A DNA stretch of 64,000 nt from Candidatus Magasanikiibacteriota bacterium (GCA_016182085.1 JACOYB010000004.1:339923-403922), one strand, 5' to 3'. Shown: positions 4,904 through 62,463, counted from the stretch's first letter. The notes: generated by a model from the letters alone, not told the origin. Numbers and translations: made by a program.

Positions 4904-4920
4904 GGGCGTTTAGCTCAGTT
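4904..4920 (+). repeat. 17-nt duplicate of the tRNA-Val 5' end (GGGCGTTTAGCTCAGTT), followed by two perfect mini-hairpins (TCCGCC-AGA-GGCGGA and CCAGCC-TTG-GGCTGG)
   Basis: Exact match to the first 17 nt of the tRNA-Val gene that starts 63 bp downstream. Confidence 0.7.
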
Positions 4921-4966
4921 TCCGCCAGAGGCGGACCAGCCTTGGGCTGGGGTTAGAAAATTAAAA

Positions 4967-5040
4967 GGGCGTTTAGCTCAGTTGGTTAGAGCGCCTCGTT
5001 TACACCGAGGAGGTCTAGGGTTCGAATCCCTAAGCGCCTA
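4967..5040 (+). tRNA. tRNA-Val (anticodon TAC)
   Basis: Acceptor GGGCGTT/AGCGCCT with G-U wobbles, D-arm GCTCAGTTGGTTAGAGC, anticodon stem CCTCG/CGAGG with loop TTTACAC, T-arm TAGGGTTCGAATCCCTA. Confidence 0.85.
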
Positions 5041-5211: not shown

Positions 5212-5703
5212 CTAGGGTCGCAGGAAGACCTTCTCGAATTGGCACTTGGGGACGTTCATCCCGAAGCCCGTGATATCGTTGTTCATGAAGGCCTGTACGC
5301 CCTTGAGGCTGCAAAATCGATACCGCTTGCCACCTTCGCCCTGGTAGGTGATGATGGTTCGGCTTGGATTGGTCTTGGCCGTGATCGGGAAGATGCCGTA
5401 GTCGGTGGGCAAGATGCGCACCGTCTCGTCTTCGCCATCGCCATCGCCGTCGGGAAGGATCTCGAAGACCATGGGTTCGGGCAAGGACGGCACATGAATG
5501 GCGTACCTCGCGCCCCACCTGCCTTCGAGTTCCTCGATACCGGGAAGGTCGGAAACAATGATCCGATCGGGGTGAGTGGTCGTTGCGTCGACCGTGAAGG
5601 TGACCGGTGTCGAATCCACGGCGAGAGTGCGGTGGGTGCTCTGGCCGGCGCAGCCGACGAGAACGAGGATGAGAGCAGTGACAGAAACAATTCTGAGCAG
5701 CAT
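5212..5703 (-). CDS. predicted secreted lipoprotein (163 aa) on a roughly 60% GC island; function unknown
   Basis: N-terminus MLLRIVSVTALILVLVGCAGQ is a signal peptide with a lipobox LVGC. Codons are GC3-rich, unlike the host. A GGAG ribosome-binding site lies 9 nt upstream. The overlapping plus-strand and other-frame ORFs look like antisense artefacts. Confidence 0.6.
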   Translation of the reverse strand: MLLRIVSVTALILVLVGCAGQSTHRTLAVDSTPVTFTVDATTTHPDRIIVSDLPGIEELEGRWGARYAIHVPSLPEPMVFEILPDGDGDGEDETVRILPTDYGIFPITAKTNPSRTIITYQGEGGKRYRFCSLKGVQAFMNNDITGFGMNVPKCQFEKVFLRP

Positions 5704-5967
5704 AGCGTGGGCTCCTGTCGTTGACTTCTTGGTCTGCTGTATCCTCTCCCGGATACTGGGTTGCAGGGGATCCTGCCGAGAATTCTAGATAGAGAGACTA
5801 TCCACAATACTCGGCACTTCCCGATTTTAAAGGGCAAATAGGCTGTTTATATAAAATTTAACTTTTGTTTATCTGCTTTTAAGCAAACCATAAAATCCAA
5901 CTTTTGTCAAGTTTAGGCAGTTAATCCGTTTGTATGATATAATTTATAGTAAGCAATTAAAATTATT

Positions 5968-12006: not shown

Positions 12007-15000
12007 ATGACTGATGTATTAAAATCCGTAAAAAAAATCTTTACGGTTAGCGTTGTCGGCGCCACCATGTTGTGGTCCGTTGGCGTTTCGGCTTTGTTGC
12101 CATCTGTTGCTGACGCAGCAGTTTGTCCAACACTTGCCGCCGGTGACATGATCAAGGTATCTGGTAAACCAGCTATCTATTCTGTCGACAAAATGAGTAA
12201 AGTTCTATATTTCCCTTCCGGTGATGAATTCAAGAGCTGGAATGAAACTAACTCCTATGGTGGTTACGTAACTGTAACTCAGGAATGTTTTGATTCCTTG
12301 CCAGTTCCTAGCACATACCCAGGCGCAGTAAACTACCGCGCCGGTTCATACGTTGTAAAGAGACCTTCCTCTGATCAATTGTATGTTGTTGAGCCAGGAA
12401 ATAAATTAGCAAAAATTTCTACAACTGATGCTGCCGCTTTATATGGCGCTAGCTACAAAGTAATGACTGTTGCCGACGCTTTCTGGCCTCACTATGTAAA
12501 TAGAGGAGCCGATATTGCCGGTATGGTTCATGAAGGTATGCTCGTAAGTAAAGATGGTAAAACATGGCTTGTAGATGCCGGTAATGTACTTCGTGAAGTA
12601 ACAGCTACTGGTATGACCGCTAACAGATTCAAATCTGCTTTCGTTCATGCTGTACCTGCTTCCTACTTGACAGCTACTACCGTTGGTTCTCCAGTTACTG
12701 CCCTAGAATCTGTTCTGTCTAACAGAACTCAAGATGGTGCTATCACCACTCCAGGTCCAGTAGTTGGTGGCAACCTAAATGTTACTTTAGCCGCTGATAA
12801 TCCAGCTGCTGGTAACATTGCTGACGGTTCTGCTTACAACAGCGTCTTAAAATTAAACTTAAGCGCTAGCGCAGCTACTCAAGTTACCGGATTAACCTTA
12901 ACCAAGACTGGTCTTATTTCTAATACAAATATCTCCGGTGTTAGCGTTTGGGATTCTCAGGGTAACCGCAAAGGCGATGTAATGACTTCCTTAACTTCAG
13001 ATAATAAAATAACTGTAAGTTTTGGATCAAGTCCATTACTCGTAGGAGCTGGTAGCAGCGAATCTTTAACTGTTAAAGTTAATATCGCTCCTGCTGCTAA
13101 CTCTGGACTCGTAGGCTTTAGTCTAGCTGCCGCTGCTGATGTTGTAAGTAATGGTACTGTTGCCGGATCATTCCCAATCGTTGGTAACCAAATGGCTATC
13201 ATTGATGGTAATGCTTCCTTAGCTTCTACTACTATTTCTGGTCAATCAGTAGGTGGTTCCGCTTCTCAACCTGCTAGCACTGCTTCCGGTAACTTAAATA
13301 TTGGCGATCTACAAAAAGAAGTTGCCAAATTTAGATTCACCGAACAGACTGGCAATGAAGATGTGTCTATCTCTAGAATTACTTTCTACGTAGCTGGTAC
13401 TATTCAAGATACCGACCTAGCTAACTGGAGTGTTTACGCTCCAAGCGGAGAAAAACTTGGTATGACAGCCGCAATGAGCAATCGTTACGTAACTGTTAAC
13501 TTTACCACTCCTTATGTAGTACCTAAGAGCACAAACCGTGATCTTACTGTAAAAGTTGATGTTGTAAACGGTTCAACCCGCAACTTCAATGTTCATATTC
13601 AGAGTGATTACGATGTATTGATTAAAGGTGTTACTACCGGATTCTACATCTTGCCTGGTTCCTTCTCAGACACAACTAGTACAACTGGTTGGTTCAACAT
13701 GGGTTCAGGTACACTAACAGTTAACAAGGCCGTCACTTCTCCTTCTCTAAACATTTCTTCTGGCGCACAAAGTATTGTGTTAGCTAAATTTGATGTTAAA
13801 GCTGTAGGTGAGAACATGGAATTGCGCAAGATGGGTCTTGGTGTAAACCAGGCCGCCGGTTCCAAGACTAAATTAACTGGCAATGTAATTGTTCGTGACG
13901 CAACAGATGGAACTGTATACTTGACTATAGCTGCTTCCGGTGCTGCTGTGTACGGTAGTGCAACACAATATACCTTATCCAGTTACTTGAATCTTAACTC
14001 AAATCAGACAAAGACCCTTGAAGTAGTTGGTAGTGTTGATTCTACTGCAACTTCTGGTGTAAGCTATCAGGTACAAATTGGTAACTTCTATGGTAAGAGA
14101 CTTTCTACTTTAGACTTTGCTGACAACTTGCCAACTTCTGGCAACACCTCTACAGCTGCCAACCAATTAACAGTAAGCGCAACTTCGCTCACTTGTTACA
14201 AGGATACAGCTATGGGTAGTGTTACCCGTGCTCCAGGTGCTACTACCGTAATTGGTCAGTACATCTGTACAGCTGGTACATCTGAAGATGTTCGTTTGAC
14301 AAACGTTGGCGTAGCCTTTGGTCTTGTTTCCGGTATGGCTTCCAACATGTTCCAGAACTTAACACTTTGGAACGGATCTACTCAATTGGGCACATCTTTA
14401 AGCACTGTTGCAAGTACATCAAACAACTTCAACTTTGACTTAACTGTTCCAAAGAGTCAGACTGTAACCTTGCAACTCAAGGCACTCGTTGTAACCGGAG
14501 CTTCCGGAGTCGTAACCACATCTTTCTCCAGCTATAACTATACTGGTAAAGACAGCGGTACAAGCGGAACTGGAAGTATCGTAGCTGGTCAACAGATTAC
14601 TGTTGGCGCTGGTAACTTAAATGTTACTGCCGTATCCGATGCTACTACCCTTTCAAAGGTGTATGGTCCTAACCAGACTGGCGTACAATTAGGTAAATGG
14701 AAACTTGCAGCTGCTAATGATAATGTTACTTTGAGTAAATTAACATTACAGTCTGTATACTCCAACTTAAGTGGCGCTGTTACAACTCTTGGTACATATG
14801 GCAGCTTGTCATTGTATGATGGCTCAACCTTACTGGCCTCTGCTAGCTATGTAAATGGCGATGTAGTGTTCACTGGTTTCAGCTCCACAATTACAATGGA
14901 TAGTTATAAAGTTTACACTTTGAAAGGCACCACAAATGGTTCCGGTGTAATTACTAATAACACCTCCACTGCTTTCGTAGTAAAGAGCGACAGCAATACT

Positions 15001-15705
15001 GACATGGAAGCTAGATCCGACGCTGGTTCACTCCTTGGTACTGCAGATATCAACTACAACACTGCAAGTAACGCAGGTAGCGCTGAATCCAGAATTGGTA
15101 CATCTACAGCTTACTTGTTCCATGACGCATACCCAACTATGACTGCTGTGTCACTTGGAAGTGCATTACTTTTGGATAGCCAAGCTAAGATCCTCAAATA
15201 CACAGTAACCAACTCTGGTGCTCGTGACTTGAGATTGTCCAGCACAACTGTAAACCTAAGCGTTTCCGGTTTAACTGGTTCTGGTGCTAACCTTGGTAGT
15301 GTTTCTGACTTCAGATTGTATGAAGACAATGGTTCTGGTGGTTTGGGCACATACTTGGCCAACACTTCTACCATTTCTATCAGCAGTACAACTCCTAACG
15401 CAGTAGCTTTGATCTTCGGTGTAGGAAATGATCAGAATAGTCTCTTTGACAACCTTGTGGTTGCTCCAGGAGCTAGTCGAACATTTATCGTAACCGCAGA
15501 CACTACTGACATGCTTGACGGTAAGACTACCGGAAGTGTAACACTTTCCGCTAAGATTGCCGGTTCAACTGGTTGGAGCGGTACAGCCTGGAACACAGGT
15601 AACTTGTTATACTTCTACACTCCAGTCGCAGGAAGTGAACAAGGCGCCTTCTCCCACTCAGACTCCTATGATGTATCAGGTACTTCATTGACCTACACAT
15701 TATAA
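12007..15705 (+). CDS. giant secreted surface protein (1232 aa), Thr/Ser/Gly/Asn-rich beta-rich; putative S-layer or adhesin-like envelope protein
   Basis: Signal peptide MTDVLKSVKKIFTVSVVGATMLWSVGVSALLPSVADA. Low-complexity beta-strand-like composition throughout. A roughly 280-nt leader upstream and a strong terminator downstream. Confidence 0.7.
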   Translation: MTDVLKSVKKIFTVSVVGATMLWSVGVSALLPSVADAAVCPTLAAGDMIKVSGKPAIYSVDKMSKVLYFPSGDEFKSWNETNSYGGYVTVTQECFDSLPVPSTYPGAVNYRAGSYVVKRPSSDQLYVVEPGNKLAKISTTDAAALYGASYKVMTVADAFWPHYVNRGADIAGMVHEGMLVSKDGKTWLVDAGNVLREVTATGMTANRFKSAFVHAVPASYLTATTVGSPVTALESVLSNRTQDGAITTPGPVVGGNLNVTLAADNPAAGNIADGSAYNSVLKLNLSASAATQVTGLTLTKTGLISNTNISGVSVWDSQGNRKGDVMTSLTSDNKITVSFGSSPLLVGAGSSESLTVKVNIAPAANSGLVGFSLAAAADVVSNGTVAGSFPIVGNQMAIIDGNASLASTTISGQSVGGSASQPASTASGNLNIGDLQKEVAKFRFTEQTGNEDVSISRITFYVAGTIQDTDLANWSVYAPSGEKLGMTAAMSNRYVTVNFTTPYVVPKSTNRDLTVKVDVVNGSTRNFNVHIQSDYDVLIKGVTTGFYILPGSFSDTTSTTGWFNMGSGTLTVNKAVTSPSLNISSGAQSIVLAKFDVKAVGENMELRKMGLGVNQAAGSKTKLTGNVIVRDATDGTVYLTIAASGAAVYGSATQYTLSSYLNLNSNQTKTLEVVGSVDSTATSGVSYQVQIGNFYGKRLSTLDFADNLPTSGNTSTAANQLTVSATSLTCYKDTAMGSVTRAPGATTVIGQYICTAGTSEDVRLTNVGVAFGLVSGMASNMFQNLTLWNGSTQLGTSLSTVASTSNNFNFDLTVPKSQTVTLQLKALVVTGASGVVTTSFSSYNYTGKDSGTSGTGSIVAGQQITVGAGNLNVTAVSDATTLSKVYGPNQTGVQLGKWKLAAANDNVTLSKLTLQSVYSNLSGAVTTLGTYGSLSLYDGSTLLASASYVNGDVVFTGFSSTITMDSYKVYTLKGTTNGSGVITNNTSTAFVVKSDSNTDMEARSDAGSLLGTADINYNTASNAGSAESRIGTSTAYLFHDAYPTMTAVSLGSALLLDSQAKILKYTVTNSGARDLRLSSTTVNLSVSGLTGSGANLGSVSDFRLYEDNGSGGLGTYLANTSTISISSTTPNAVALIFGVGNDQNSLFDNLVVAPGASRTFIVTADTTDMLDGKTTGSVTLSAKIAGSTGWSGTAWNTGNLLYFYTPVAGSEQGAFSHSDSYDVSGTSLTYTL

Positions 15706-16499: not shown

Positions 16500-18305
16500 A
16501 TGAACATCCGCAACGTTGCCATCATCGCCCACGTAGACCACGGAAAGACCACACTTGTGGATGCTTTGTTGCGTCAATCCAAAACTAAATTATCCAAAGA
16601 ACAAGATAGTCAGATTACAATCATGGATAGTAATGATTTGGAACGTGAACGCGGTATTACGATTTTTTCCAAAAATGCTTCCGTAGAATGGAAAGATACA
16701 AAAATAAATATCATTGATACCCCGGGACACGCTGACTTTGGCGGGGAAGTAGAAAGAGTTTTGAAATTAGCTGATGGTTGTTTGTTGCTTGTAGACGCCA
16801 AAGAAGGCCCAATGCCTCAGACCAGATTTGTGCTCAAAAAAGCTTTGCAAATGGGGCATAAAGTAATTGTAGTTATAAATAAAATTGATAAACCAGGCGC
16901 CAGACCAAATTGGGTGCTAGACAAAACTTTTGATTTGTTTGTGGAACTTGGAGCCAGCGACGAAGTGGCTGAATTCCCAGTTATTTATGCTTCCGCCAAA
17001 AATGGTAAGGCCGGTATGGCACCGGATCTAGAAGCAATGACCGACATTACTCCTGTTTTTGATACGGTGTTAAAATTTATTCCTGAACCAAAAGTAGATC
17101 CAAATGCGCCGTTGCAAATACTCATTACTACTATTACCGGCGATAATTTTAAAGGTAGAATTGCGACTGGCAGAATCTATAACGGCACAATCAAAACTGG
17201 CCAAGATATAATGCATATAAATAGAGAAGGCGTAATGAAAAAATGCCGCGTTATGGCGCTCATGACATTTTTTGGTTTAGAAAGAATAGAAGTTCAAGAA
17301 GCGTTTGCCGGAGATGTGGTGGCTATTGCCGGTATTGGAGATATAAACATCGGTGAAACTGTGGCTGATGTTGCCAGCCCGGTTGCTTTGCCGCTTCTTA
17401 CCATAGAAGAACCAACTGTTAAAATGACTTTTAGTGTAAATAATTCTCCGTTTGCCGGAAAAGAAGGGGAATTTACCACTTCCAGACAGATTCGCGATAG
17501 ATTATTTAAAGAACTAGAAACAGACATGGCTCTAAAGGTGGCCGATGGTACCGAAGGCAATTGGATTGTTTCTGGCCGCGGTGAATTGCATTTAGCAATA
17601 CTTATCGAACGTCTGCGCCGAGAAGGATTTGAATTCCAGATTTCTCGTCCGCAAGTTATTATTAAAGAAGTTGATGGTCAAAAAATGACTCCTTATGAAC
17701 AAGTGTTTGTGGAAGTTCCCGAAGCTCATTCTGGAGCGGTAATCCAAAAGTTGGGCAGCCGCCACGGAGAATTACGAGAAATGAGAACCGAAAATGGCAT
17801 AGTTTTCTTAGAGTTTATTATTCCAACCCGCGGGTTGTTTGGTTATCGTACCGAATTTTTGACCGACACCAGAGGTTTGGGAATTATCAATACAATTTTT
17901 TATCAGTACATGCCGGATCCGGCCAATTGGCGCGAACGCGATCAAGGATCGCTTGTGGCTCACGAAACTGGTGTTACCAATTTGTATGGACTTCTTAATG
18001 TGCAAGACAGAGGAGTTATGTTTATTGGCCCTGGTGTGCAGGTTTACAAAGGCCAGGTAGTGGGTCAAAATGCGCGCAGTGAAGATATATCTGTAAATGT
18101 ATGTAAAGAAAAACAACTCTCTAACATGCGTTCCAAAGGCGATGGCGTGAGCGAACATTTTAACGCGCCAAAAGTTATGGATTTGGAAGAAGCGATGGAA
18201 TATATCGGTGATGATGAACTTGTAGAAATTACTCCAAAAAGCATTCGCATCAGAAAAGTTATCTTGGATGAAAGCGAAGCCAAACGAAAAGCACGGGGAA
18301 TGTAA
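16500..18305 (+). CDS. typA: translational GTPase TypA/BipA
   Basis: N-terminus MNIRNVAIIAHVDHGKTTLVDALL with G1-G5 motifs, an EF-G-like domain architecture, and a length of 601 aa. Confidence 0.92.
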   Translation: MNIRNVAIIAHVDHGKTTLVDALLRQSKTKLSKEQDSQITIMDSNDLERERGITIFSKNASVEWKDTKINIIDTPGHADFGGEVERVLKLADGCLLLVDAKEGPMPQTRFVLKKALQMGHKVIVVINKIDKPGARPNWVLDKTFDLFVELGASDEVAEFPVIYASAKNGKAGMAPDLEAMTDITPVFDTVLKFIPEPKVDPNAPLQILITTITGDNFKGRIATGRIYNGTIKTGQDIMHINREGVMKKCRVMALMTFFGLERIEVQEAFAGDVVAIAGIGDINIGETVADVASPVALPLLTIEEPTVKMTFSVNNSPFAGKEGEFTTSRQIRDRLFKELETDMALKVADGTEGNWIVSGRGELHLAILIERLRREGFEFQISRPQVIIKEVDGQKMTPYEQVFVEVPEAHSGAVIQKLGSRHGELREMRTENGIVFLEFIIPTRGLFGYRTEFLTDTRGLGIINTIFYQYMPDPANWRERDQGSLVAHETGVTNLYGLLNVQDRGVMFIGPGVQVYKGQVVGQNARSEDISVNVCKEKQLSNMRSKGDGVSEHFNAPKVMDLEEAMEYIGDDELVEITPKSIRIRKVILDESEAKRKARGM

Positions 18306-18414
18306 GATCAGTCCTTAAAGTTTATAAAGTTACGGATATTTTGACGGACAATTATTTTTTTGTTAAAGTTTATTAACTTGTGACTTTATAGACTTTTGAC
18401 TTTTCAAACTTCAA

Positions 18415-18486
18415 TGGCCCCATCGTCTATCAGTTAGGACACGACCTTCTCAAGGTTGAGAGACGGGTGCGATTCCCGTTGGGGCT
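18415..18486 (+). tRNA. tRNA-Glu (anticodon CTC)
   Basis: Acceptor GGCCCCA/TGGGGCT. The D-arm TCGTCTA...AGGACAC resembles bacterial tRNA-Glu. Anticodon stem CGACC/GGTTG with loop TTCTCAA; T-arm ACGGG-TGCGATT-CCCGT. The T-loop is slightly non-canonical. Confidence 0.7.
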
Positions 18487-18487
18487 A

Positions 18488-18524
18488 CAAATATAAAAGA
18501 CACCGTTTTGGTGTCTTTTATATT
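18488..18524. terminator. perfect palindromic (bidirectional) terminator hairpin
   Basis: AAATATAAAAGACACCGTTTTGGTGTCTTTTATATTT. The flanks extend into an imperfect 35-bp inverted repeat that includes an inverted copy of the tRNA T-arm (CAACGGGAATCGCAG, 18536-18550). Confidence 0.7.
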
Positions 18525-18526
18525 TG

Positions 18527-18660
18527 TTAGGGTCCACAACGGGAATCGCAGGGAAAGGGTGAAAACGGAAGTTTTCACTTGCTGAGGAAAGTCCACGAAA
18601 ACCCGAAGGTTTTCGTGAGAGCCCGCTTGCGGGCGAGCGATGCCCTAGTTGGGGCTACAA
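18527..18660 (+). ncRNA. candidate structured RNA / integration-scar segment: three perfect tetraloop hairpins plus a GAGGAAAGUCC motif, ending in a degenerate copy of the tRNA-Glu T-arm and 3' acceptor
   Basis: Hairpins GTGAAAAC-GGAA-GTTTTCAC (18558-18577), CACGAAAACC-CGAA-GGTTTTCGTG (18593-18616) and GCCCGC-TT-GCGGGC (18620-18633); GAGGAAAGTCC at 18584-18594. GTTGGGGCTACAA at 18647-18659 directly repeats the tRNA 3' end at 18477-18489. Confidence 0.35.
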
Positions 18661-18704
18661 CTCCACAAACCGAACACTTCTGGTCGTTTCTGGAGATAAG
18701 TTGA

Positions 18705-18735
18705 TAAAAGCCATCTTAGATGAGATGGCTTTTAT
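18705..18735 (+). terminator. terminator-like hairpin AAAAGCCATCTTAGATGAGATGGCTTTT
   Basis: Perfect 10-bp stem, 8-nt loop, followed by a T-rich tract. Confidence 0.55.
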
Positions 18736-18772
18736 GATTTATCGAAGAACGTCAATTCTATTATATGGCGAT

Positions 18773-18801
18773 CTTGACAAAACGCTCATTTTATGGTATT
18801 A
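18773..18801 (+). promoter_or_regulatory. near-consensus sigma-70 promoter with extended -10 (TTGACA, 17 nt, TGgTATTAT) driving the GC-rich membrane-protein ORF
   Basis: cTTGACAaaacgctcattttaTGgTATTAT, then a CCTCAGC...GCTGAGG leader hairpin and a GGAGG ribosome-binding site 6 nt before the ATG at 18870. Confidence 0.6.
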
Positions 18802-18869
18802 TCGACTGTTTCCTCAGCCTAGCAGCTTTATGGCTTTTAAGCTGAGGAAATCAATCCTCGGAGGTTCCC

Positions 18870-19505
18870 ATGGAAAACGTCTGGGTCGGTATCGTTCTGT
18901 TCGCTCTCGCTGCCACCTGCCTCGCTCTCGTCGAGATCGAGTCGGAGGGCAAGCACGGGTGGGCAGAGAAGTTGCCCACCTGGTACCGCACCAAGGGCCG
19001 ACTGGCGCGGATCTACGCCATCATCATGGCGAAGAAGCCGCTCACCGGCTATCACCTCTGGATGTTCTTCTTCCCGATCTTCTTCTTCCACTTCCAGTTC
19101 GCCTTCGCGTCCTGGTCGCTGGAGAAGGAGCTGCTCACCTGGGCGGTCTATTTCGCCTGGTGTGTGCTGTGGGACTACCACTGGTTCGTCATGAACCCCG
19201 CCTATAAGGGCAGGTTCAAGAAGGACTACGTCTGGTGGCATGCGAAGAGCGCTTGGGTGTTCGACTGGTTTCCGGTCGACTACCTGGTGGGCACGGGCTT
19301 CTCGTTCGTGCTCGCAGCCGGAGCAGCCTTGGTCGCTGGCAACAGCGGCGTGTTGCTCAACCACTTCTATGTGGTGGCGGGTTGGTGGGGCTATACGGCG
19401 ATCCTCAAGATCATCGTGAGTCCATACTACCATCGCTGGCATATCAAGATGCATCATTGGTCGCGTGACCAACGCGACCAAGTCGACATCTTCCACCAGG
19501 ACTAA
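18870..19505 (+). CDS. Trp-rich polytopic membrane protein (211 aa) of unknown function on a roughly 60% GC island
   Basis: Strong GC3 codon bias unlike the host. Four to five hydrophobic segments, W-rich (WDYHWFVMNPAYKGRFKKDYVWWHAKSAWVFDWFPVDY), GGAGG ribosome-binding site. The overlapping antisense ORFs look spurious. Confidence 0.6.
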   Translation: MENVWVGIVLFALAATCLALVEIESEGKHGWAEKLPTWYRTKGRLARIYAIIMAKKPLTGYHLWMFFFPIFFFHFQFAFASWSLEKELLTWAVYFAWCVLWDYHWFVMNPAYKGRFKKDYVWWHAKSAWVFDWFPVDYLVGTGFSFVLAAGAALVAGNSGVLLNHFYVVAGWWGYTAILKIIVSPYYHRWHIKMHHWSRDQRDQVDIFHQD

Positions 19506-19575
19506 ACCCTCACGGACGCGCCACCGCAAGGCGTCTGATGGGACACAAAGAAAGGAGCAGTACTTGCGGTCTCAT

Positions 19576-19609
19576 CAAAAACAACTTTCACCCGAAGGTT
19601 GTTTTTGTT
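19576..19609 (+). terminator. rho-independent terminator after the GC-rich membrane-protein gene
   Basis: AAAAACAACTTTCACCCGAAGGTTGTTTTTGTTT. Confidence 0.65.
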
Positions 19610-19929
19610 TATGTTATATTTGAGAGGTGGTAAGTAAGTAGACAGTAGAGAGGAGTCGTGATATTATGGCGGTAATATTAGTTTTTTATTACTACTTAAT
19701 AACATAGGTCCAAACACCAGCCACCTCTCCTTTATCTCCTGAACTAAGGTGTGCCAGAAAAAAGACAAGTAGGCTACACCAAAAACTAAAAAACCGTTCG
19801 CAAATTCCTCCTGCTTTACCTCTAAGTTAATATTTAGAAATAAAGCAGATGGGCGAACGGTTTTTTGTTTCCCACCTATTTTTTAAAGGTGGGCCGCGAA
19901 TGTACATGGTTCCTCCTGTGAACGGTTGT

Positions 19930-21072
19930 TCAGCGAACGGCGAGGGTGTTCCCGCCGAACTCGATGCCCAGCGGACTGATCACGACCTTCTTCTCGCTGC
20001 TCGCCTCGATGTGGCCGGCGACGTAGGCCTGGAACGGCTGGCCCTGCGCTGCCTCGAGCACCTTGCTCACGTCCTCGGGGGCAACGTAGATCGCGAAGCC
20101 CGCACCCATGTTGAAGGTGCTATAGGCTTCCTTGTCGCTGACCGGTCCGTGCTGCTGGATGAAGCGGAAGATCGGCGACGGGTTGGGCGGCAGCTCGTCG
20201 ATCACGTAGGTGAAGTTGCCCTCCGCGCGCATGAGCTTGCGCCAGCCGTGCCCCGTCACGTTGACGGCGTAGTGGATGTCGATCCCAGTCATCTGGCACG
20301 AACGGATGAGCTCGACATAGATGTGCGTCGGGTCGAGCAGCATCTCGCCGTACGTCTGGCGCATGTTGACCTGGGTGAGGTAGCCGTCCGGAAGCTTCTT
20401 GGCGATCTTGCGCGCGAGCGTGTATCCGTTGGCGTGGACTCCCGAGCTCGTGAACATCACGATGACGTCGCCGTCCTTGATGCGGCCCGGGTTGATGACC
20501 TTCTCCTTGGGTGCGATGATGCCCGTGGCCGAACCCGAGAGGACGGCCGTGAGCGGCAGGACGATACCCTGGAGCGTCGGTGTCTCGCCTCCGCCCCAGA
20601 CGCAGCCGGCCTGGAGGCAGGCGCGCTTCGTCCCCTCAACCAAGTCATGGCAGCGACGGTCGTTCTTGAACCAGTCCGAGTCGCCGACAGCGAGGTGCTG
20701 GGCGTAGGAGACCGGCAGCGCGCCGAGCGTGATCATGTCATTGACTGCCATCGCCACGTTGCACTGGGCAACCTGGTCGTAGAAGGTTCTCGTGCGGCCA
20801 GCGAAGCTGATGCCGTCCACGAGCTGGAGCATGGCGTCGGCCACCAAGTTCTTGGTGCCGAGGCCTTCCTCGACGTGGGCGATGTAGCCCCAGGGCGTCT
20901 CGATGAGGAACGCGCTCTCACCACGGCTCCACCCGACCACCTTGAATCCGAACCGGTCGGCACACCGATCCGTATCCCGGGCGGCAAGCTGCGCCACCCG
21001 CTTGAACGGATCCATGGTGTCGTAGTTAACGCCGGTAGCGGCGTAGGTCAGACCCTTTTTGGAGTCACTCAT
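19930..21072 (-). CDS. purM: PurM-family protein (phosphoribosylformylglycinamidine cyclo-ligase / AIR synthase-like), divergent, about 62% GC
   Basis: Blocks alignable to E. coli PurM: GVNYDTMDPFKR (GVDIDAGNALVER), EGLGTK (DGVGTK), VAMAVNDMITLGALP (VAMCVNDLVVQGAEP), CLQAGCVWGGGET (CLQSGCSLVGGET), DGDVIVMFTSSGVHANGYTLARKI ([24 protein letters not shown]) and YSTFNMGAGFAIYV (YRTFNCGVGMIIAL). The start is taken at MSDSKKG (ATG 21070-21072) because the upstream in-frame extension is AT-rich host-like sequence. The gene is convergent with the membrane-protein ORF. Confidence 0.65.
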   Translation of the reverse strand: MSDSKKGLTYAATGVNYDTMDPFKRVAQLAARDTDRCADRFGFKVVGWSRGESAFLIETPWGYIAHVEEGLGTKNLVADAMLQLVDGISFAGRTRTFYDQVAQCNVAMAVNDMITLGALPVSYAQHLAVGDSDWFKNDRRCHDLVEGTKRACLQAGCVWGGGETPTLQGIVLPLTAVLSGSATGIIAPKEKVINPGRIKDGDVIVMFTSSGVHANGYTLARKIAKKLPDGYLTQVNMRQTYGEMLLDPTHIYVELIRSCQMTGIDIHYAVNVTGHGWRKLMRAEGNFTYVIDELPPNPSPIFRFIQQHGPVSDKEAYSTFNMGAGFAIYVAPEDVSKVLEAAQGQPFQAYVAGHIEASSEKKVVISPLGIEFGGNTLAVR

Positions 21073-21259
21073 TGATGTTTTCTCCCGAAAAGTTGTTGGG
21101 TTTCGTAAGCAAAAACTATCATAAAGGGAGAAATAATTCAAGGGTTTTTAGAAACTGCGTAGTTTGCAATTTTGAATATTTTATTTATTATTTTTGACAT
21201 CCTACAAAAAACCTGTCATTCTAATTTTATCAACAATTGTAGAAAGAAGTGGGGGAACC

Positions 21260-26551: not shown

Positions 26552-26953
26552 ATGTTGAAAGTCAAATGGCGTTCTGATGATGGTCAGGGCGAAGTTTGCC
26601 CTGATTCTGGCGGTCCTGTCACCCCCGACATGGTTGAAGAAATGGTCAGGGCGGCCATTGCCTTCGTGGCCAACCTTCGGTTCGTGGCCAAGCCTCAGAA
26701 GGTTTCAAAGGTTTCAGCCGTCTTTTTCATGGTGAGCAAGCCTCAAGACGTCATGGAAAAGCAGCGTAAGGTACTGCGGCAAAACAAGAAGCTGGGTACA
26801 GCTGATCCAGAGCCTTACCCTGTCTACGGATGGATTGAAGTCGCCGCGGATTCCAACCTGGCGAACATCATGTCCAAGTTCGCCCATGAGAAGGATCGGG
26901 TTGAACGTAGCACGGTATTTACCACCTTTATGATCCAGGCCATGAAGGTGTAG
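26552..26953 (+). CDS. hypothetical protein (133 aa) on a roughly 52% GC segment
   Basis: ORF with GC3-rich codons, preceded by TTGACA / TAGTAT promoter-like boxes, a tRNA T-arm-like hairpin CCCGGGTTCAATCCGGG and a purine-rich ribosome-binding site. No family recognised. Confidence 0.45.
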   Translation: MLKVKWRSDDGQGEVCPDSGGPVTPDMVEEMVRAAIAFVANLRFVAKPQKVSKVSAVFFMVSKPQDVMEKQRKVLRQNKKLGTADPEPYPVYGWIEVAADSNLANIMSKFAHEKDRVERSTVFTTFMIQAMKV

Positions 26954-42579: not shown

Positions 42580-42608
42580 TTGACAAAAGGGTGATTTTAT
42601 GATATATT
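42580..42608 (+). promoter_or_regulatory. near-consensus sigma-70 promoter with extended -10 (TTGACA, 17 nt, TGaTATATT) upstream of the GC-rich ORF
   Basis: cTTGACAaaagggtgattttaTGaTATATT, followed by a roughly 100-nt AT-rich leader and an AGGAGG ribosome-binding site 7 nt before the ATG at 42719. Confidence 0.55.
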
Positions 42609-42718
42609 TATCTGTTATTTTTATCTAAAAATACATTCAGTGGCCTGTCGATTAACTGTAGTAAATTCTTACTATAGATAACCGGCACACCAACCAACAA
42701 AGCCGGAAGGAGGCCCTC

Positions 42719-43366
42719 ATGGGCAGAACGAACCAAACGATCAAGATTCTGGGCACCACGGGCTTCCTGAGCTGCAGCTACGGCCGAGATCCTCAGTGGA
42801 GCACCATGATCGAGATCGATGACCCCGAGGAGCTCGACTGGCAGGACATTCCGCCCGAGCTGAAGTTCGAGGGCAAGAAGCTCATCGTGTGCGTCAAGAT
42901 CGGTAGCCGTAGCAACCATGCGTTCACGAGCGCGGAGCTGCGCCAGATCGGACAGGAGCTCCGCTGGACGAAGAACAACCCGCTCGGCGCCCAGCTCAAG
43001 GAGCTTCGCGAGCGTCGTGATTTCCTCAAGCAGCAGTACGACCAGGACAAGGCTGGCAACTCCAGTCGTCTCCTGCTCACCTTCCGCAAGGGAGGGCCGC
43101 GGAACGAGCTCCAGGCGTCGGATGAGACCGAACCCGGTCGCCGATTCCATCGAGTGTTCGTCCTCGATCGCTACACCCTCGAGCGTGGCAACGTCAAGGA
43201 GGGCGCGACCTACTCCTGCTCCATTAAGCAGGTACTGAAGCAGAACGATCCGCAGGGCAATTTCCAGGGCTTCATGCTCCTCCTCGTCTCGGTCGGGCAC
43301 GAACACTTCGATCCCGACCAGCGGATCCAGAAGTTCGAGGCTGCCATCGCCGCGGGTGCCAAGTAG
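42719..43366 (+). CDS. hypothetical soluble protein (215 aa) on a roughly 62% GC island
   Basis: Strong GC3 bias and AGGAGG ribosome-binding site; no TM segment; no family recognised. The overlapping 278-aa minus-strand ORF looks antisense. Confidence 0.55.
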   Translation: MGRTNQTIKILGTTGFLSCSYGRDPQWSTMIEIDDPEELDWQDIPPELKFEGKKLIVCVKIGSRSNHAFTSAELRQIGQELRWTKNNPLGAQLKELRERRDFLKQQYDQDKAGNSSRLLLTFRKGGPRNELQASDETEPGRRFHRVFVLDRYTLERGNVKEGATYSCSIKQVLKQNDPQGNFQGFMLLLVSVGHEHFDPDQRIQKFEAAIAAGAK

Positions 43367-43502
43367 TTCGTGCGTCACTGAGCAACTCGGTCGCACCATG
43401 CGACCCGAGCGACTCAGACAACTACATCCGAGCCGCTCACACAATCTAATAACTATTTGTTACATTGTGTGAGCTCGGATGTATAGAGAAAACAAAATAT
43501 TT

Positions 43503-61893: not shown

Positions 61894-62463
61894 TCAGGGC
61901 TGATTTTGCCAGTAACCGTAACAGGATGTCTCCAGCGTCGGCTTGCGGACAGTCTTGGCCGTGTCCGGACAGCTCTGGTGGAACGTCCACAGCGGCGAGG
62001 CTGCGTCGGCTGCCTGGATATCACTTTCAAGATCCAGGTTCGGTAACCACGCTCCGTAGAGGTAGCAGATGCCGGGCTTGTCGTCCGGGCACACGAACTG
62101 CGTCCCGGGAACTTTGGGCGGGTACTTCTCCTCCGTGGCCCGGAGCATGCGGTTGAGCTCATCGATGAGGGCCTTCTGCTTCCGCATGACATGCAGCAGG
62201 TCGGCTTCGAGCGCGTCCTTCTCGTTGATGAGATTGTTCTTCAGATTGATGACATCGTCCTTCGCCTCGACGATCTCGTTCTTCTGCTCGACCGTGTGCA
62301 CCCATAAGAAGGTGGTAACGGTAAAGAGGAAGAAGTTCAAGACGGTGGCCGCAATCATGATGCGCCTCCATTCCTTGAGCCGGCCGTTTTCGGCCGTGAG
62401 ATCCTGGATTTGCTCCTGGGGGGAGCTGGTCGTCGTTTCGCGTGAGGATTCCATGATAGTCAC
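61894..62463 (-). CDS. hypothetical single-pass membrane protein with a coiled coil and Cys-containing C-terminal domain (189 aa) on a roughly 60% GC island
   Basis: TM helix IMIAATVLNFFLFTVTTFLWV; coiled coil LKNNLINEKDALEADLLHVMRKQKALIDELNRML; C-terminal region with 4 Cys. GC3-rich codons. A host-type promoter TTGACAaaacctcatttttatgcAATCAT lies upstream on the minus strand. The plus-strand ORFs over the same DNA are Arg/Pro-rich antisense artefacts. Confidence 0.55.
   Translation of the reverse strand: MTIMESSRETTTSSPQEQIQDLTAENGRLKEWRRIMIAATVLNFFLFTVTTFLWVHTVEQKNEIVEAKDDVINLKNNLINEKDALEADLLHVMRKQKALIDELNRMLRATEEKYPPKVPGTQFVCPDDKPGICYLYGAWLPNLDLESDIQAADAASPLWTFHQSCPDTAKTVRKPTLETSCYGYWQNQP

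Follow-up and report, generated by a model that had tools for sequence, protein, structure and literature searches.

Positions 18487-18660 of a 64,000-nucleotide (nt) window from Candidatus Magasanikiibacteriota bacterium (GCA_016182085.1 JACOYB010000004.1:339923-403922) lie immediately downstream of a glutamate transfer RNA (tRNA) gene and hold a terminator, a module of three hairpins and partial copies of the end of that tRNA gene. The explanation that we favour, at slightly better than even chances, is that this stretch is a gene-less miniature insertion beside the tRNA that carries a functional structured module, most likely a small RNA read from the plus strand. An earlier reading made from the sequence alone (the sequence-only reading) had left a choice between the attL/attR-type scar of an element integrated into the tRNA 3' end and a small structured RNA. 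Best supported by our analysis is a combination of the two, in which attachment (att)-type repeats enclose a functional structured element. All coordinates given without a locus name are window positions, and the module copies compared are those of the window and of the loci L001, L003 (= L082), L085/L087 and L094.

The element begins at the end of tRNA-Glu(CTC), which ARAGORN places at 18416-18488 on the plus strand (Rfam tRNA 18416-18487, 51.9 bits) and the sequence-only reading at 18415-18486. Direct-repeat comparison defined the 3' part of this gene (18466-18490, plus strand) as the first copy of a repeat, DR1. There follows a palindromic bidirectional intrinsic terminator, term1 (18487-18527), built of an A-tract, a GACACC/GGTGTC hairpin and a T-tract; its arms, 18487-18504 and 18510-18527, are complementary at 18 of 18 positions, in agreement with the perfect palindrome described before, and a simple terminator scan did not flag it. 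On the plus strand behind it, an inverted-repeat search and the minimum-free-energy fold located an inverted copy of the tRNA-Glu T-loop, T-stem and acceptor 3' strand (18531-18550), in which 18534-18550 is complementary to 18468-18484 at 16 of 17 positions; this copy had been noticed as an inverted T-arm at 18536-18550. After the hairpin core comes the tail, DR2 (18637-18660, plus strand), a degenerate T-loop and T-stem joined to an exact copy of the acceptor 3' strand. The exact part is a 13-nt direct repeat, GTTGGGGCTACAA, at 18478-18490 and 18648-18660 (18647-18659 in the sequence-only reading), and the degenerate similarity reaches back to the T-loop over about 25 nt (GCGATTCCC-GTTGGGG versus GCGATGCCCTAGTTGGGG). 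By simple arithmetic, an exact 13-mer repeat within 170 nt has a chance expectation of about 1e-5. All the features that the sequence-only reading had listed were found, with coordinates shifted by 1-2 nt.

The conserved three-hairpin core (18551-18640, plus strand) consists, in order, of the linker GGGAAAGG, hairpin H1 (18557-18580, loop GGAA), a linker with UGAGGAAAG, hairpin H2 (18594-18617, loop CGAA), AGA, hairpin H3 (18621-18634, GCCCG-CUUG-CGGGC) and GAGCGA. The three hairpins are perfect and the first two are capped as described before, while the third has the loop CUUG and not the TT assigned to it. A 138-nt stretch folds with z = -4.5, and in the predicted minimum-free-energy fold the inverted copy (18531-18550) pairs with 18637-18656, so that inverted copy and tail form the 5' and 3' strands of a bulged helix closing a four-way junction. 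At its base this closing helix repeats the acceptor stem of tRNA-Glu, with G-U, G-C and then C-G pairs, and like the tRNA gene it ends in ACAA. The long closing helix made from the inverted tRNA copy is a feature of the Glu type: L001 and L003 retain the inverted copy, in L094 it is weak and about three pairs are kept (GAA/UUC for GGG/CCC), and in L085 its outer part, the outer strand of the helix, is gone. The four alternating GAAAAC/GTTTTC hexamers in H1 and H2 are invariant.

Sequence comparison separates the core clearly from a neutrally evolving stretch. Its identity is 91-94% in all pairs of the window, L001, L003 and L085, against 59-61% at the four-fold degenerate sites of the adjacent bipA gene in the same lineages, which served as the neutral comparison. 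L001 and L003 carry the element directly after tRNA-Glu, and relative to them the conserved element is sharply bounded (18531-18658), its flanks being unalignable; the tRNA gene itself is 100% conserved in both, and the structure of term1 is retained with a different sequence in each. The fourth variant, L085/L087, came from a metagenome pattern scan. As judged by RNAalifold and by direct pair counts, H1, H2 and H3 are 100% paired in five sequences, with four compensatory pairs, one in H1, one in H2 and two in H3. The pairing or covariation score was reached by none of 500 shuffles, and controls in which the partners were slid by 1-3 columns paired in 36-49% of cells as against 94.8% observed. 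The single-sided changes, found in H2 of L001 and in the inner closing stem of L003, are all G-U compatible, and only when the plus strand is read. The unpaired purine-rich linkers are invariant among the copies, and L003 has a 32-nt insertion at the tip of H2. We rejected a protein-coding module because its reading frame is broken in L003. Since conservation lies far above neutral and is accompanied by compensatory changes, the module is not a neutral scar; these comparisons indicate that strong purifying selection maintains both its sequence and its base pairing and that it is a working structured nucleic acid. The structural half of the earlier small-RNA proposal is borne out by the same conservation and compensatory changes, and its RNA status is putative. 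We favour a plus-strand RNA because of the G-U-compatible changes, the invariant purine-rich linkers, the tetraloop-capped hairpins, the insertion at a hairpin tip and the terminators after the tail, where terminator-like hairpins follow in L094, L003 and the window.

The module also occurs behind a different tRNA. A protein-database search with a translated module frame gave one match, which led to L094, a contig of 734 nt in which tRNA-Ala(CGC) is followed by a terminator, the module, 20 nt that repeat the tRNA-Ala 3' end exactly, and a second terminator; the copy in the tail (L094:393-412) matches the tRNA end at L094:215-234. A covariance model built without L094 scores this copy at 87.6 bits, and H1 and H3 show further compensatory changes in it. 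In both the Glu and the Ala type it is within the T-loop (..GAGYGA|) that the constant module gives way to the tRNA-specific tail. As the same module stands behind tRNA-Ala with a matching tail, module and tRNA-matching tail move together, and on this evidence the tail would be the segment shared with the target, that is, the recombination core. The repeat arrangement seen in the window is retained in L001, L003/L082, L085/L087 and L094, the tRNA-end repeat being 13 nt exact in the window, 11 nt in L001 and L003, and 20 nt exact in L094. Related loci totalling about 1 Mb contain 48 tRNAs; among these, a downstream copy of the tRNA's own end of at least 11 nt was found at module loci only, apart from an 11-nt match in L033 that lies 1.5 kb downstream within an open reading frame (ORF) and is probably due to chance. 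Further copies of the module were found neither in three viral-contig pattern scans nor by blastn against phages and plasmids. The covariance model run over 48 + 9 loci returned known copies only, and found a single copy of the module and no array; an 18-bit match within the AIRS gene described below (20790-20947, minus strand) was taken as chance. A concatenated multi-frame query had no match either.

Comparison of the tRNA-Glu locus across relatives, which the sequence-only reading had proposed as a check, gave the boundaries of the insertion and revealed empty sites. The upstream neighbour of the tRNA is bipA/typA; its closest relatives, at 95-97% amino acid identity, belong to metagenome-assembled genomes of the Candidate Phyla Radiation (CPR) labelled Magasanikbacteria or Parcubacteria, 15 of which retain the bipA-tRNA-Glu(CTC) arrangement. 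An exact look-up of the window's bipA product in the assembly collection, made for strain variants, returned no record. Downstream, the interval between tRNA-Glu and dus is hypervariable and acts as a hot spot of insertion. Its length is about 0-180 nt in L004, L007, L010 and L002, which show the empty site; four genomes have 0.6-1.4 kb there, another four have 3.2-3.6 kb, and the window has 4.3 kb. The module is patchily distributed, being absent from L002, L008 and L013; the last two show the empty site as well, with tRNA-Glu followed by the pilin gene that comes after the module in L087.

Gene cassettes have entered exactly at the end of the tail. In the window, a specific 1.1-kb cassette (18661-19778, plus strand) is inserted at the DR2 end; in L001 it is absent, and DR2 there directly precedes the orthologue of 19779 onward. 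The cassette ends in a third, degenerate tRNA-Glu end, DR3 (GTAGGCTACAC; 19769-19779, plus strand), which is orthologous to the L001 DR2 junction. The cassette contains a terminator-like hairpin (18704-18740), a promoter-like site (18774-18802) preceding a GGAGG ribosome-binding site, an ORF of 211 amino acids (18870-19505, plus strand) that is GC-rich, has no Pfam match and has no relative in any fetched locus, a hairpin at 19576-19607 and a long imperfect hairpin at 19604-19747. In L003 this slot after the tail is occupied by another cassette, of 2 kb with GNAT/ASCH genes, closed by CTTGGGCTACAAAATAAAA and a terminator at L003:4372-4420, analogous to DR3. Partial tRNA ends are nested threefold in both the window and L003. 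Those of L003 all have separate terminators behind them, and the second of these terminators is similar to the tRNA-Glu terminators of L007 and L010. Beyond the repeat-bounded units lies a GC-rich gene related to AIR synthase (PurM-like; 19930-21141, minus strand; Pfam AIRS and AIRS_C), which is 78% identical to L001:8344-9555 (minus strand) and, among the fetched relatives, is present only in the window and L001. In one of its two alternatives, the sequence-only reading had treated the GC-rich genes as the cargo of the att-type repeats. The repeats themselves are upheld by the hot spot, the nested ends and the tail at tRNA-Ala; what they enclose is only about 160 bp, namely terminator and module. 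Because the first GC-rich ORF belongs to a separate cassette and the large GC-rich gene lies on the minus strand outside the repeats, the GC-rich genes are not cargo of this repeat pair.

Several further observations concern GC-rich genes in the window. A plus-strand ORF at 19849-21075, opposite the AIRS gene in a stretch of 65% GC, is a shadow ORF whose frame is split in L001. GC-rich ORFs (52-58% GC, in a genome of about 41%) with no Pfam match lie at 5283-5837 (minus), 26552-26953 (plus), 42608-43444 (minus) and 61894-62463 (minus), besides the cassette ORF at 18870-19505 (plus). The first of these stands just after tRNA-Lys/tRNA-Val and is lipoprotein-like, with a signal peptide ending ..LVGCAGQ. 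These scattered ORFs suggest repeated acquisition of foreign cassettes, some of them beside tRNAs. A second copy of the opening 17 nt of tRNA-Val (GGGCGTTTAGCTCAGTT) stands 63 nt ahead of the gene (4904-4920 versus 4967-4983), and the 46 nt between the duplicates hold two GC hairpins (TCCGCCAGAGGCGGA, CCAGCCTTGGGCTGG). The stretch 4904-4966 looks like a small insert, bounded by repeats and lying 5' of a tRNA.

The tRNA-Glu gene has peculiarities of its own. Its T-loop reads UGCGAUU (T-arm 18464-18476), with G in place of the near-universal U55 (pseudouridine); the same loop occurs in L001-L003, L005, L008, L009, L011, L013, L015 and L017, and the usual UUCGAUU/C in L004, L006, L007 and L010. 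The tRNA 3' half, terminator and inverted copy together (18468-18550) form a single near-perfect palindrome with arms of 37-41 nt, and in the minimum-free-energy fold of a read-through transcript this long hairpin displaces the T-arm and acceptor pairing of the tRNA. The tRNA in a read-through transcript would thus be misfolded, except where the tail further downstream competes for pairing with the inverted copy. In L001 a partial copy of the tRNA 5' end (GGCCCCATCG) lies upstream of tRNA-Glu (L001:7850-7880) and is followed by a masked N run; it may be a second, partial tRNA copy on the 5' side.

We looked for genes that might mobilize the element. The sole recombinase linked to a module copy is found in L085, where a fragment of 53 amino acids from the N-terminus of a serine recombinase is encoded about 45 nt upstream of the module (L085:231-392, minus strand). 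As a candidate partner of the module, the 1232-amino-acid ORF at 12007-15705 (plus strand) was rejected, being present in relatives both with and without the module; with its signal-peptide-like N-terminus, no Pfam domain and 70-97% conservation it looks like a secreted surface protein.

Truncated N-termini of serine recombinases proved to be common across many CPR phyla. They form 229 protein clusters, and all 120 that were listed measure 93 amino acids or less; examples are L088:4001-4207, L089:115-336, L091:4001-4210, L093:4001-4210, L095:2442-2669 and L096:3001-3150. Their breakpoints recur after codon 40, at about codon 52 and at about codon 77. A tRNA gene (Gly, Leu, Arg and others) lies about 140 nt upstream of nearly every fragment. 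In each case a conserved sequence, 'X', which begins immediately behind the tRNA CCA, precedes the fragment, and behind the fragment stands a tail resembling a degenerate 3' half of a tRNA (..GTTCGAAC..AGAGCACCA). We found no C-terminal part nearby and no full-length relative in viral contigs or in the fetched loci. Where the reading is intact, codons 41-46 are palindromic (GCTTCCTTTCAGGAAGC), and what directly follows them is similar to the beginning of 'X'; by analogy, the fragments may reflect an attachment site within the gene, as in the archaeal virus SSV1, or self-deletion. At L096:2755-3301, convergent tRNA-Leu-TAG (plus) and tRNA-Arg-GCG (minus) genes are each followed by 'X' in mirror orientation, with a 40-codon recombinase fragment between the two tRNAs. 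The tail in L089 (L089:235-275) holds GAGCCCGCTTGCGGGCGAGC, in which 20 nt are identical to H3 of the window and its flanks; it is enclosed by GCGGC/GCCGC, then followed by ACCA, in a fold like a tRNA minihelix. H3 plus tail may be a 'unit end' shared by several element types.

The module matches no RNA class that we compared it with. At gathering thresholds Rfam returned three tRNAs only over the whole window, and at E up to 10 over 18300-18950 it returned the tRNA and noise, with nothing over 18528-18660 and no similarity to the IS605 and HEARO families; ARAGORN, which reported three tRNAs, and Rfam detected no transfer-messenger RNA (tmRNA). The Infernal comparison that the sequence-only reading had proposed, with the RNase P, tmRNA and all other Rfam models, thus assigned the element to no family. 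A miniature RNase P RNA or tmRNA-like ribozyme gene had been brought to mind by the string GAGGAAAGTCC at 18584-18594, which recalls the CR-I region of RNase P RNA, and by the tRNA-like 3' end; we give this reading a negligible probability. The string is present, in a single copy in the window, and like bacterial RNase P RNA the element has an 11-nt string GAGGAAAGUCC and GNRA-type capped hairpins. It differs from RNase P RNA, whose covariance model does not match it, in being a quarter as long (the core is 90 nt), in having no P4 partner strand and in its variable string, which reads GAGGAAAGCCC in L001, GAGGAAAGCCU in L085 (..GCCU) and GAGGAAAGCUC in L094 (..GCUC). The only RNaseP_bact_a match, at 8.8 bits against a gathering score of 100, falls on the terminator (18493-18525). 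The RNase P resemblances are coincidental. A hammerhead ribozyme was also rejected: CUGAGGA is present, the GAAA required after stem II is absent, and there is no Rfam hammerhead match. TIGR arrays, which carry 9-nt dual spacers (PMC12045711), are not comparable.

On the reading that we favour, the insertion is bounded in attL/attR manner by the tRNA 3' end and its partial copy at a tRNA-Glu hot spot, and brings in a replacement terminator for the tRNA together with the module of about 90 nt, in which purine-rich linkers join three hairpins. Pairing of the inverted copy with the tail closes the four-way junction of the Glu type, whose base imitates the acceptor/T helix of the tRNA, and the tail end has later served as the insertion point for gene cassettes. 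Shown by the sequences are the repeats and nested insertions, conservation with covariation, and a tail specific to the tRNA; site-specific recombination by an enzyme encoded elsewhere, transcription of the module from the plus strand and its role are the parts that we infer. Some results weigh against this proposal. No sigma-70-like promoter was found upstream of the module in L001, L003 and L094, and the window has a weak one; a strong terminator stands directly upstream of the module; and no ORF of at least 100 amino acids in the 64-kb window has an integrase, recombinase or transposase domain. The comparison comprises five distinct sequences, three of them from one clade, and the pair counts were made on a model-fitted alignment. 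The derived state GATGCCC is common to all four Glu-type tails, which a single old insertion inherited vertically would fit as well as mobility does. Moreover, the tRNA-proximal terminator of L001 is of the 'ancestral' AAAATCCGC type, and a simple Campbell-type insertion would put that terminator after the tail.

Other explanations share part of this evidence. A non-functional scar, consisting of leftover attL/attR and element ends in neutral drift, would account for the direct repeats of the tRNA end, the hot-spot locus and the lack of genes between the repeats, but is very improbable in view of the 91-94% identity against about 60% at neutral sites, the compensatory changes with no hairpin pair broken, and the recurrence at tRNA-Ala. 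A folded-DNA recombination site, comparable to an integron attC or a filamentous-phage attP and acting without any RNA as a platform for cassette insertion, seems unlikely to us. In this reading the base of a single-stranded DNA hairpin would mimic the tRNA-end duplex; in its favour, the module abuts the repeat core, later cassettes were inserted exactly at the 3' end of the closing helix in two lineages, and the second cassette of the window ends in a long imperfect hairpin just before the third repeat. Such a site needs no promoter, in keeping with the lack of one upstream in L001, L003 and L094, and the invariant GAAAAC/GTTTTC hexamers of H1 and H2 could bind a protein. The bulged closing helix is bounded by CCNCAAC/GTTGGGG, which resembles the attC inverse-core and core consensus, RYYYAAC and GTTRRRY; however, CCACAAC/GTTGGGG in the window and CCCCAAC/GTTGGGG in L003 deviate from it at the first and last positions, and these heptamers are absent in L094 and L085. 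The GTT core is missing from the tRNA-Ala version, as is the long closing helix from both L094 and L085, and no integron integrase, tyrosine recombinase or other recombinase occurs among the ORFs of at least 100 amino acids in the window. Furthermore, attC sites keep their structure and not 90% of their sequence, whereas the linkers here are invariant, and G-U-compatible substitutions fit RNA better than DNA.

Two readings keep the RNA and change its role. One takes it as a host small RNA linked to the tRNA and not mobile, in which helix and tail arose by local duplication and the RNA is excised from a read-through transcript by tRNA-processing enzymes (RNase P, 3' trimming, CCA addition). For this reading, tRNA and module share a strand in all intact cases, with the module coming directly after the tRNA; the foot of the closing helix is a copy of the acceptor stem ending in ACAA; purifying selection is strong; and no mobility gene lies nearby. 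Yet a strong terminator separates tRNA and module, the acceptor-like helix is not retained in L094 or L085, a switch of the tail to another neighbouring tRNA requires insertion or recombination anyway, and the module is patchy in close relatives, with nested insertions at the same point; we allow this reading a small probability. The other takes the RNA as a guide for insertion, similar to IS110 bridge RNA or IS605 omega RNA, in which the constant scaffold serves a recombinase or nuclease and the tail is its programmable guide; the inverted copy of the Glu type would serve to address the opposite DNA strand. In its favour, a near-identical scaffold is joined to two unrelated tails, each identical to the adjacent tRNA end, and a guide is easily retargeted while its scaffold stays unchanged, which is difficult for a core recognized by protein. 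In the Glu type, moreover, the same 17-20 bp of target are present twice, once as the complement and once in identical form, and tRNA-adjacent recombinase fragments are very numerous in CPR, one of them lying beside the L085 module. We nevertheless consider a guide of this kind improbable, since no effector gene (IS110 recombinase, TnpB, IscB) lies near any of the five copies, the tail ends exactly at the tRNA end and is then followed by a terminator, as a displaced tRNA end would be, L094 has no evident inverted copy, and neither a promoter nor any similarity to IS605 or HEARO was found. Returning to the miniature insertion with a structured module, we think it probable that the module is a so far undescribed small RNA, or else a recombination site that folds, and that it is carried along by miniature insertions targeting tRNAs. 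Our best guess for its role is targeting or maintenance of the element itself at the tRNA end and not a host pathway.

The arrangement can be placed among known systems. In Prochlorococcus islands, serial integrations at one tRNA leave partial tRNAs and fragmented integrases (doi 10.1101/2020.12.28.424599). As in tRNA-integrating islands and prophages, including the Prochlorococcus tycheposon islands (doi 10.1101/2020.12.28.424599), a repeat of the tRNA 3' part from T-loop to 3' end flanks the insert, which restores the tRNA end and supplies a terminator, and as in tRNA-proximal islands there are several partial tRNAs, variable cargo and fragmented recombinase genes. Unlike those islands, the unit here measures about 160 bp, has no gene and no integrase, consists of a conserved, covarying hairpin module with two different tRNA-specific tails, and apparently received its later cassettes at the partial copy and not at the tRNA. 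With integron attC sites it shares an imperfect, bulged hairpin of about 125 nt, core-like heptamers, a variable tip that tolerates insertions and a next cassette that starts at the hairpin 3' end; it differs from integrons in having no IntI or attI, no attC array, an anchoring at tRNAs and a core lost in the tRNA-Ala version, and from attC in an internal sequence that is about 90% conserved and has substitutions fitting G-U pairs. IS110 bridge RNA and IS200/IS605 omega RNA likewise join a constant scaffold to a short segment matching the insertion site and are encoded at the end of the inserted unit, reading outward. Here, in contrast, the RNA is putative, there is no linked recombinase or TnpB and no sequence or Rfam similarity, and the matching segment coincides exactly with the displaced tRNA end. 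Islands beside tRNAs with partial tRNA repeats are already known; a gene-less unit that holds nothing but a strongly conserved, covarying module, recurs with different tRNA-specific tails and marks the entry of later cassettes was found neither in Rfam nor in the literature searched.

CPR bacteria have tiny genomes and few recognised mobile elements. On a conservative reading, our results correct the boundaries of an island and show the RNase P resemblance to be spurious. Beyond this, foreign GC-rich cassettes have been captured here more than once at a single tRNA end, and a structured element with a tRNA-matching tail exactly at the capture point offers a handle on how capture is targeted. 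Should the module be an RNA, it would represent a new family absent from Rfam; should it be a folded attachment site or a guide, it would point to a tRNA-anchored route of gene acquisition, either integron-like or RNA-directed, in the CPR, a large branch of the bacterial tree that is still little understood. More speculatively, and with a low probability in our estimate, the module may be the constant scaffold of a programmable insertion system directed to tRNA ends in CPR, in which the tail, together with the inverted copy in the Glu type, would specify the target by pairing or by mimicry of a tRNA minihelix, and the enzyme would be encoded elsewhere, possibly by the serine recombinase family that leaves its fragments beside tRNAs. 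If true, this would be a new kind of nucleic-acid-guided site selection for the capture of gene cassettes at tRNA genes.

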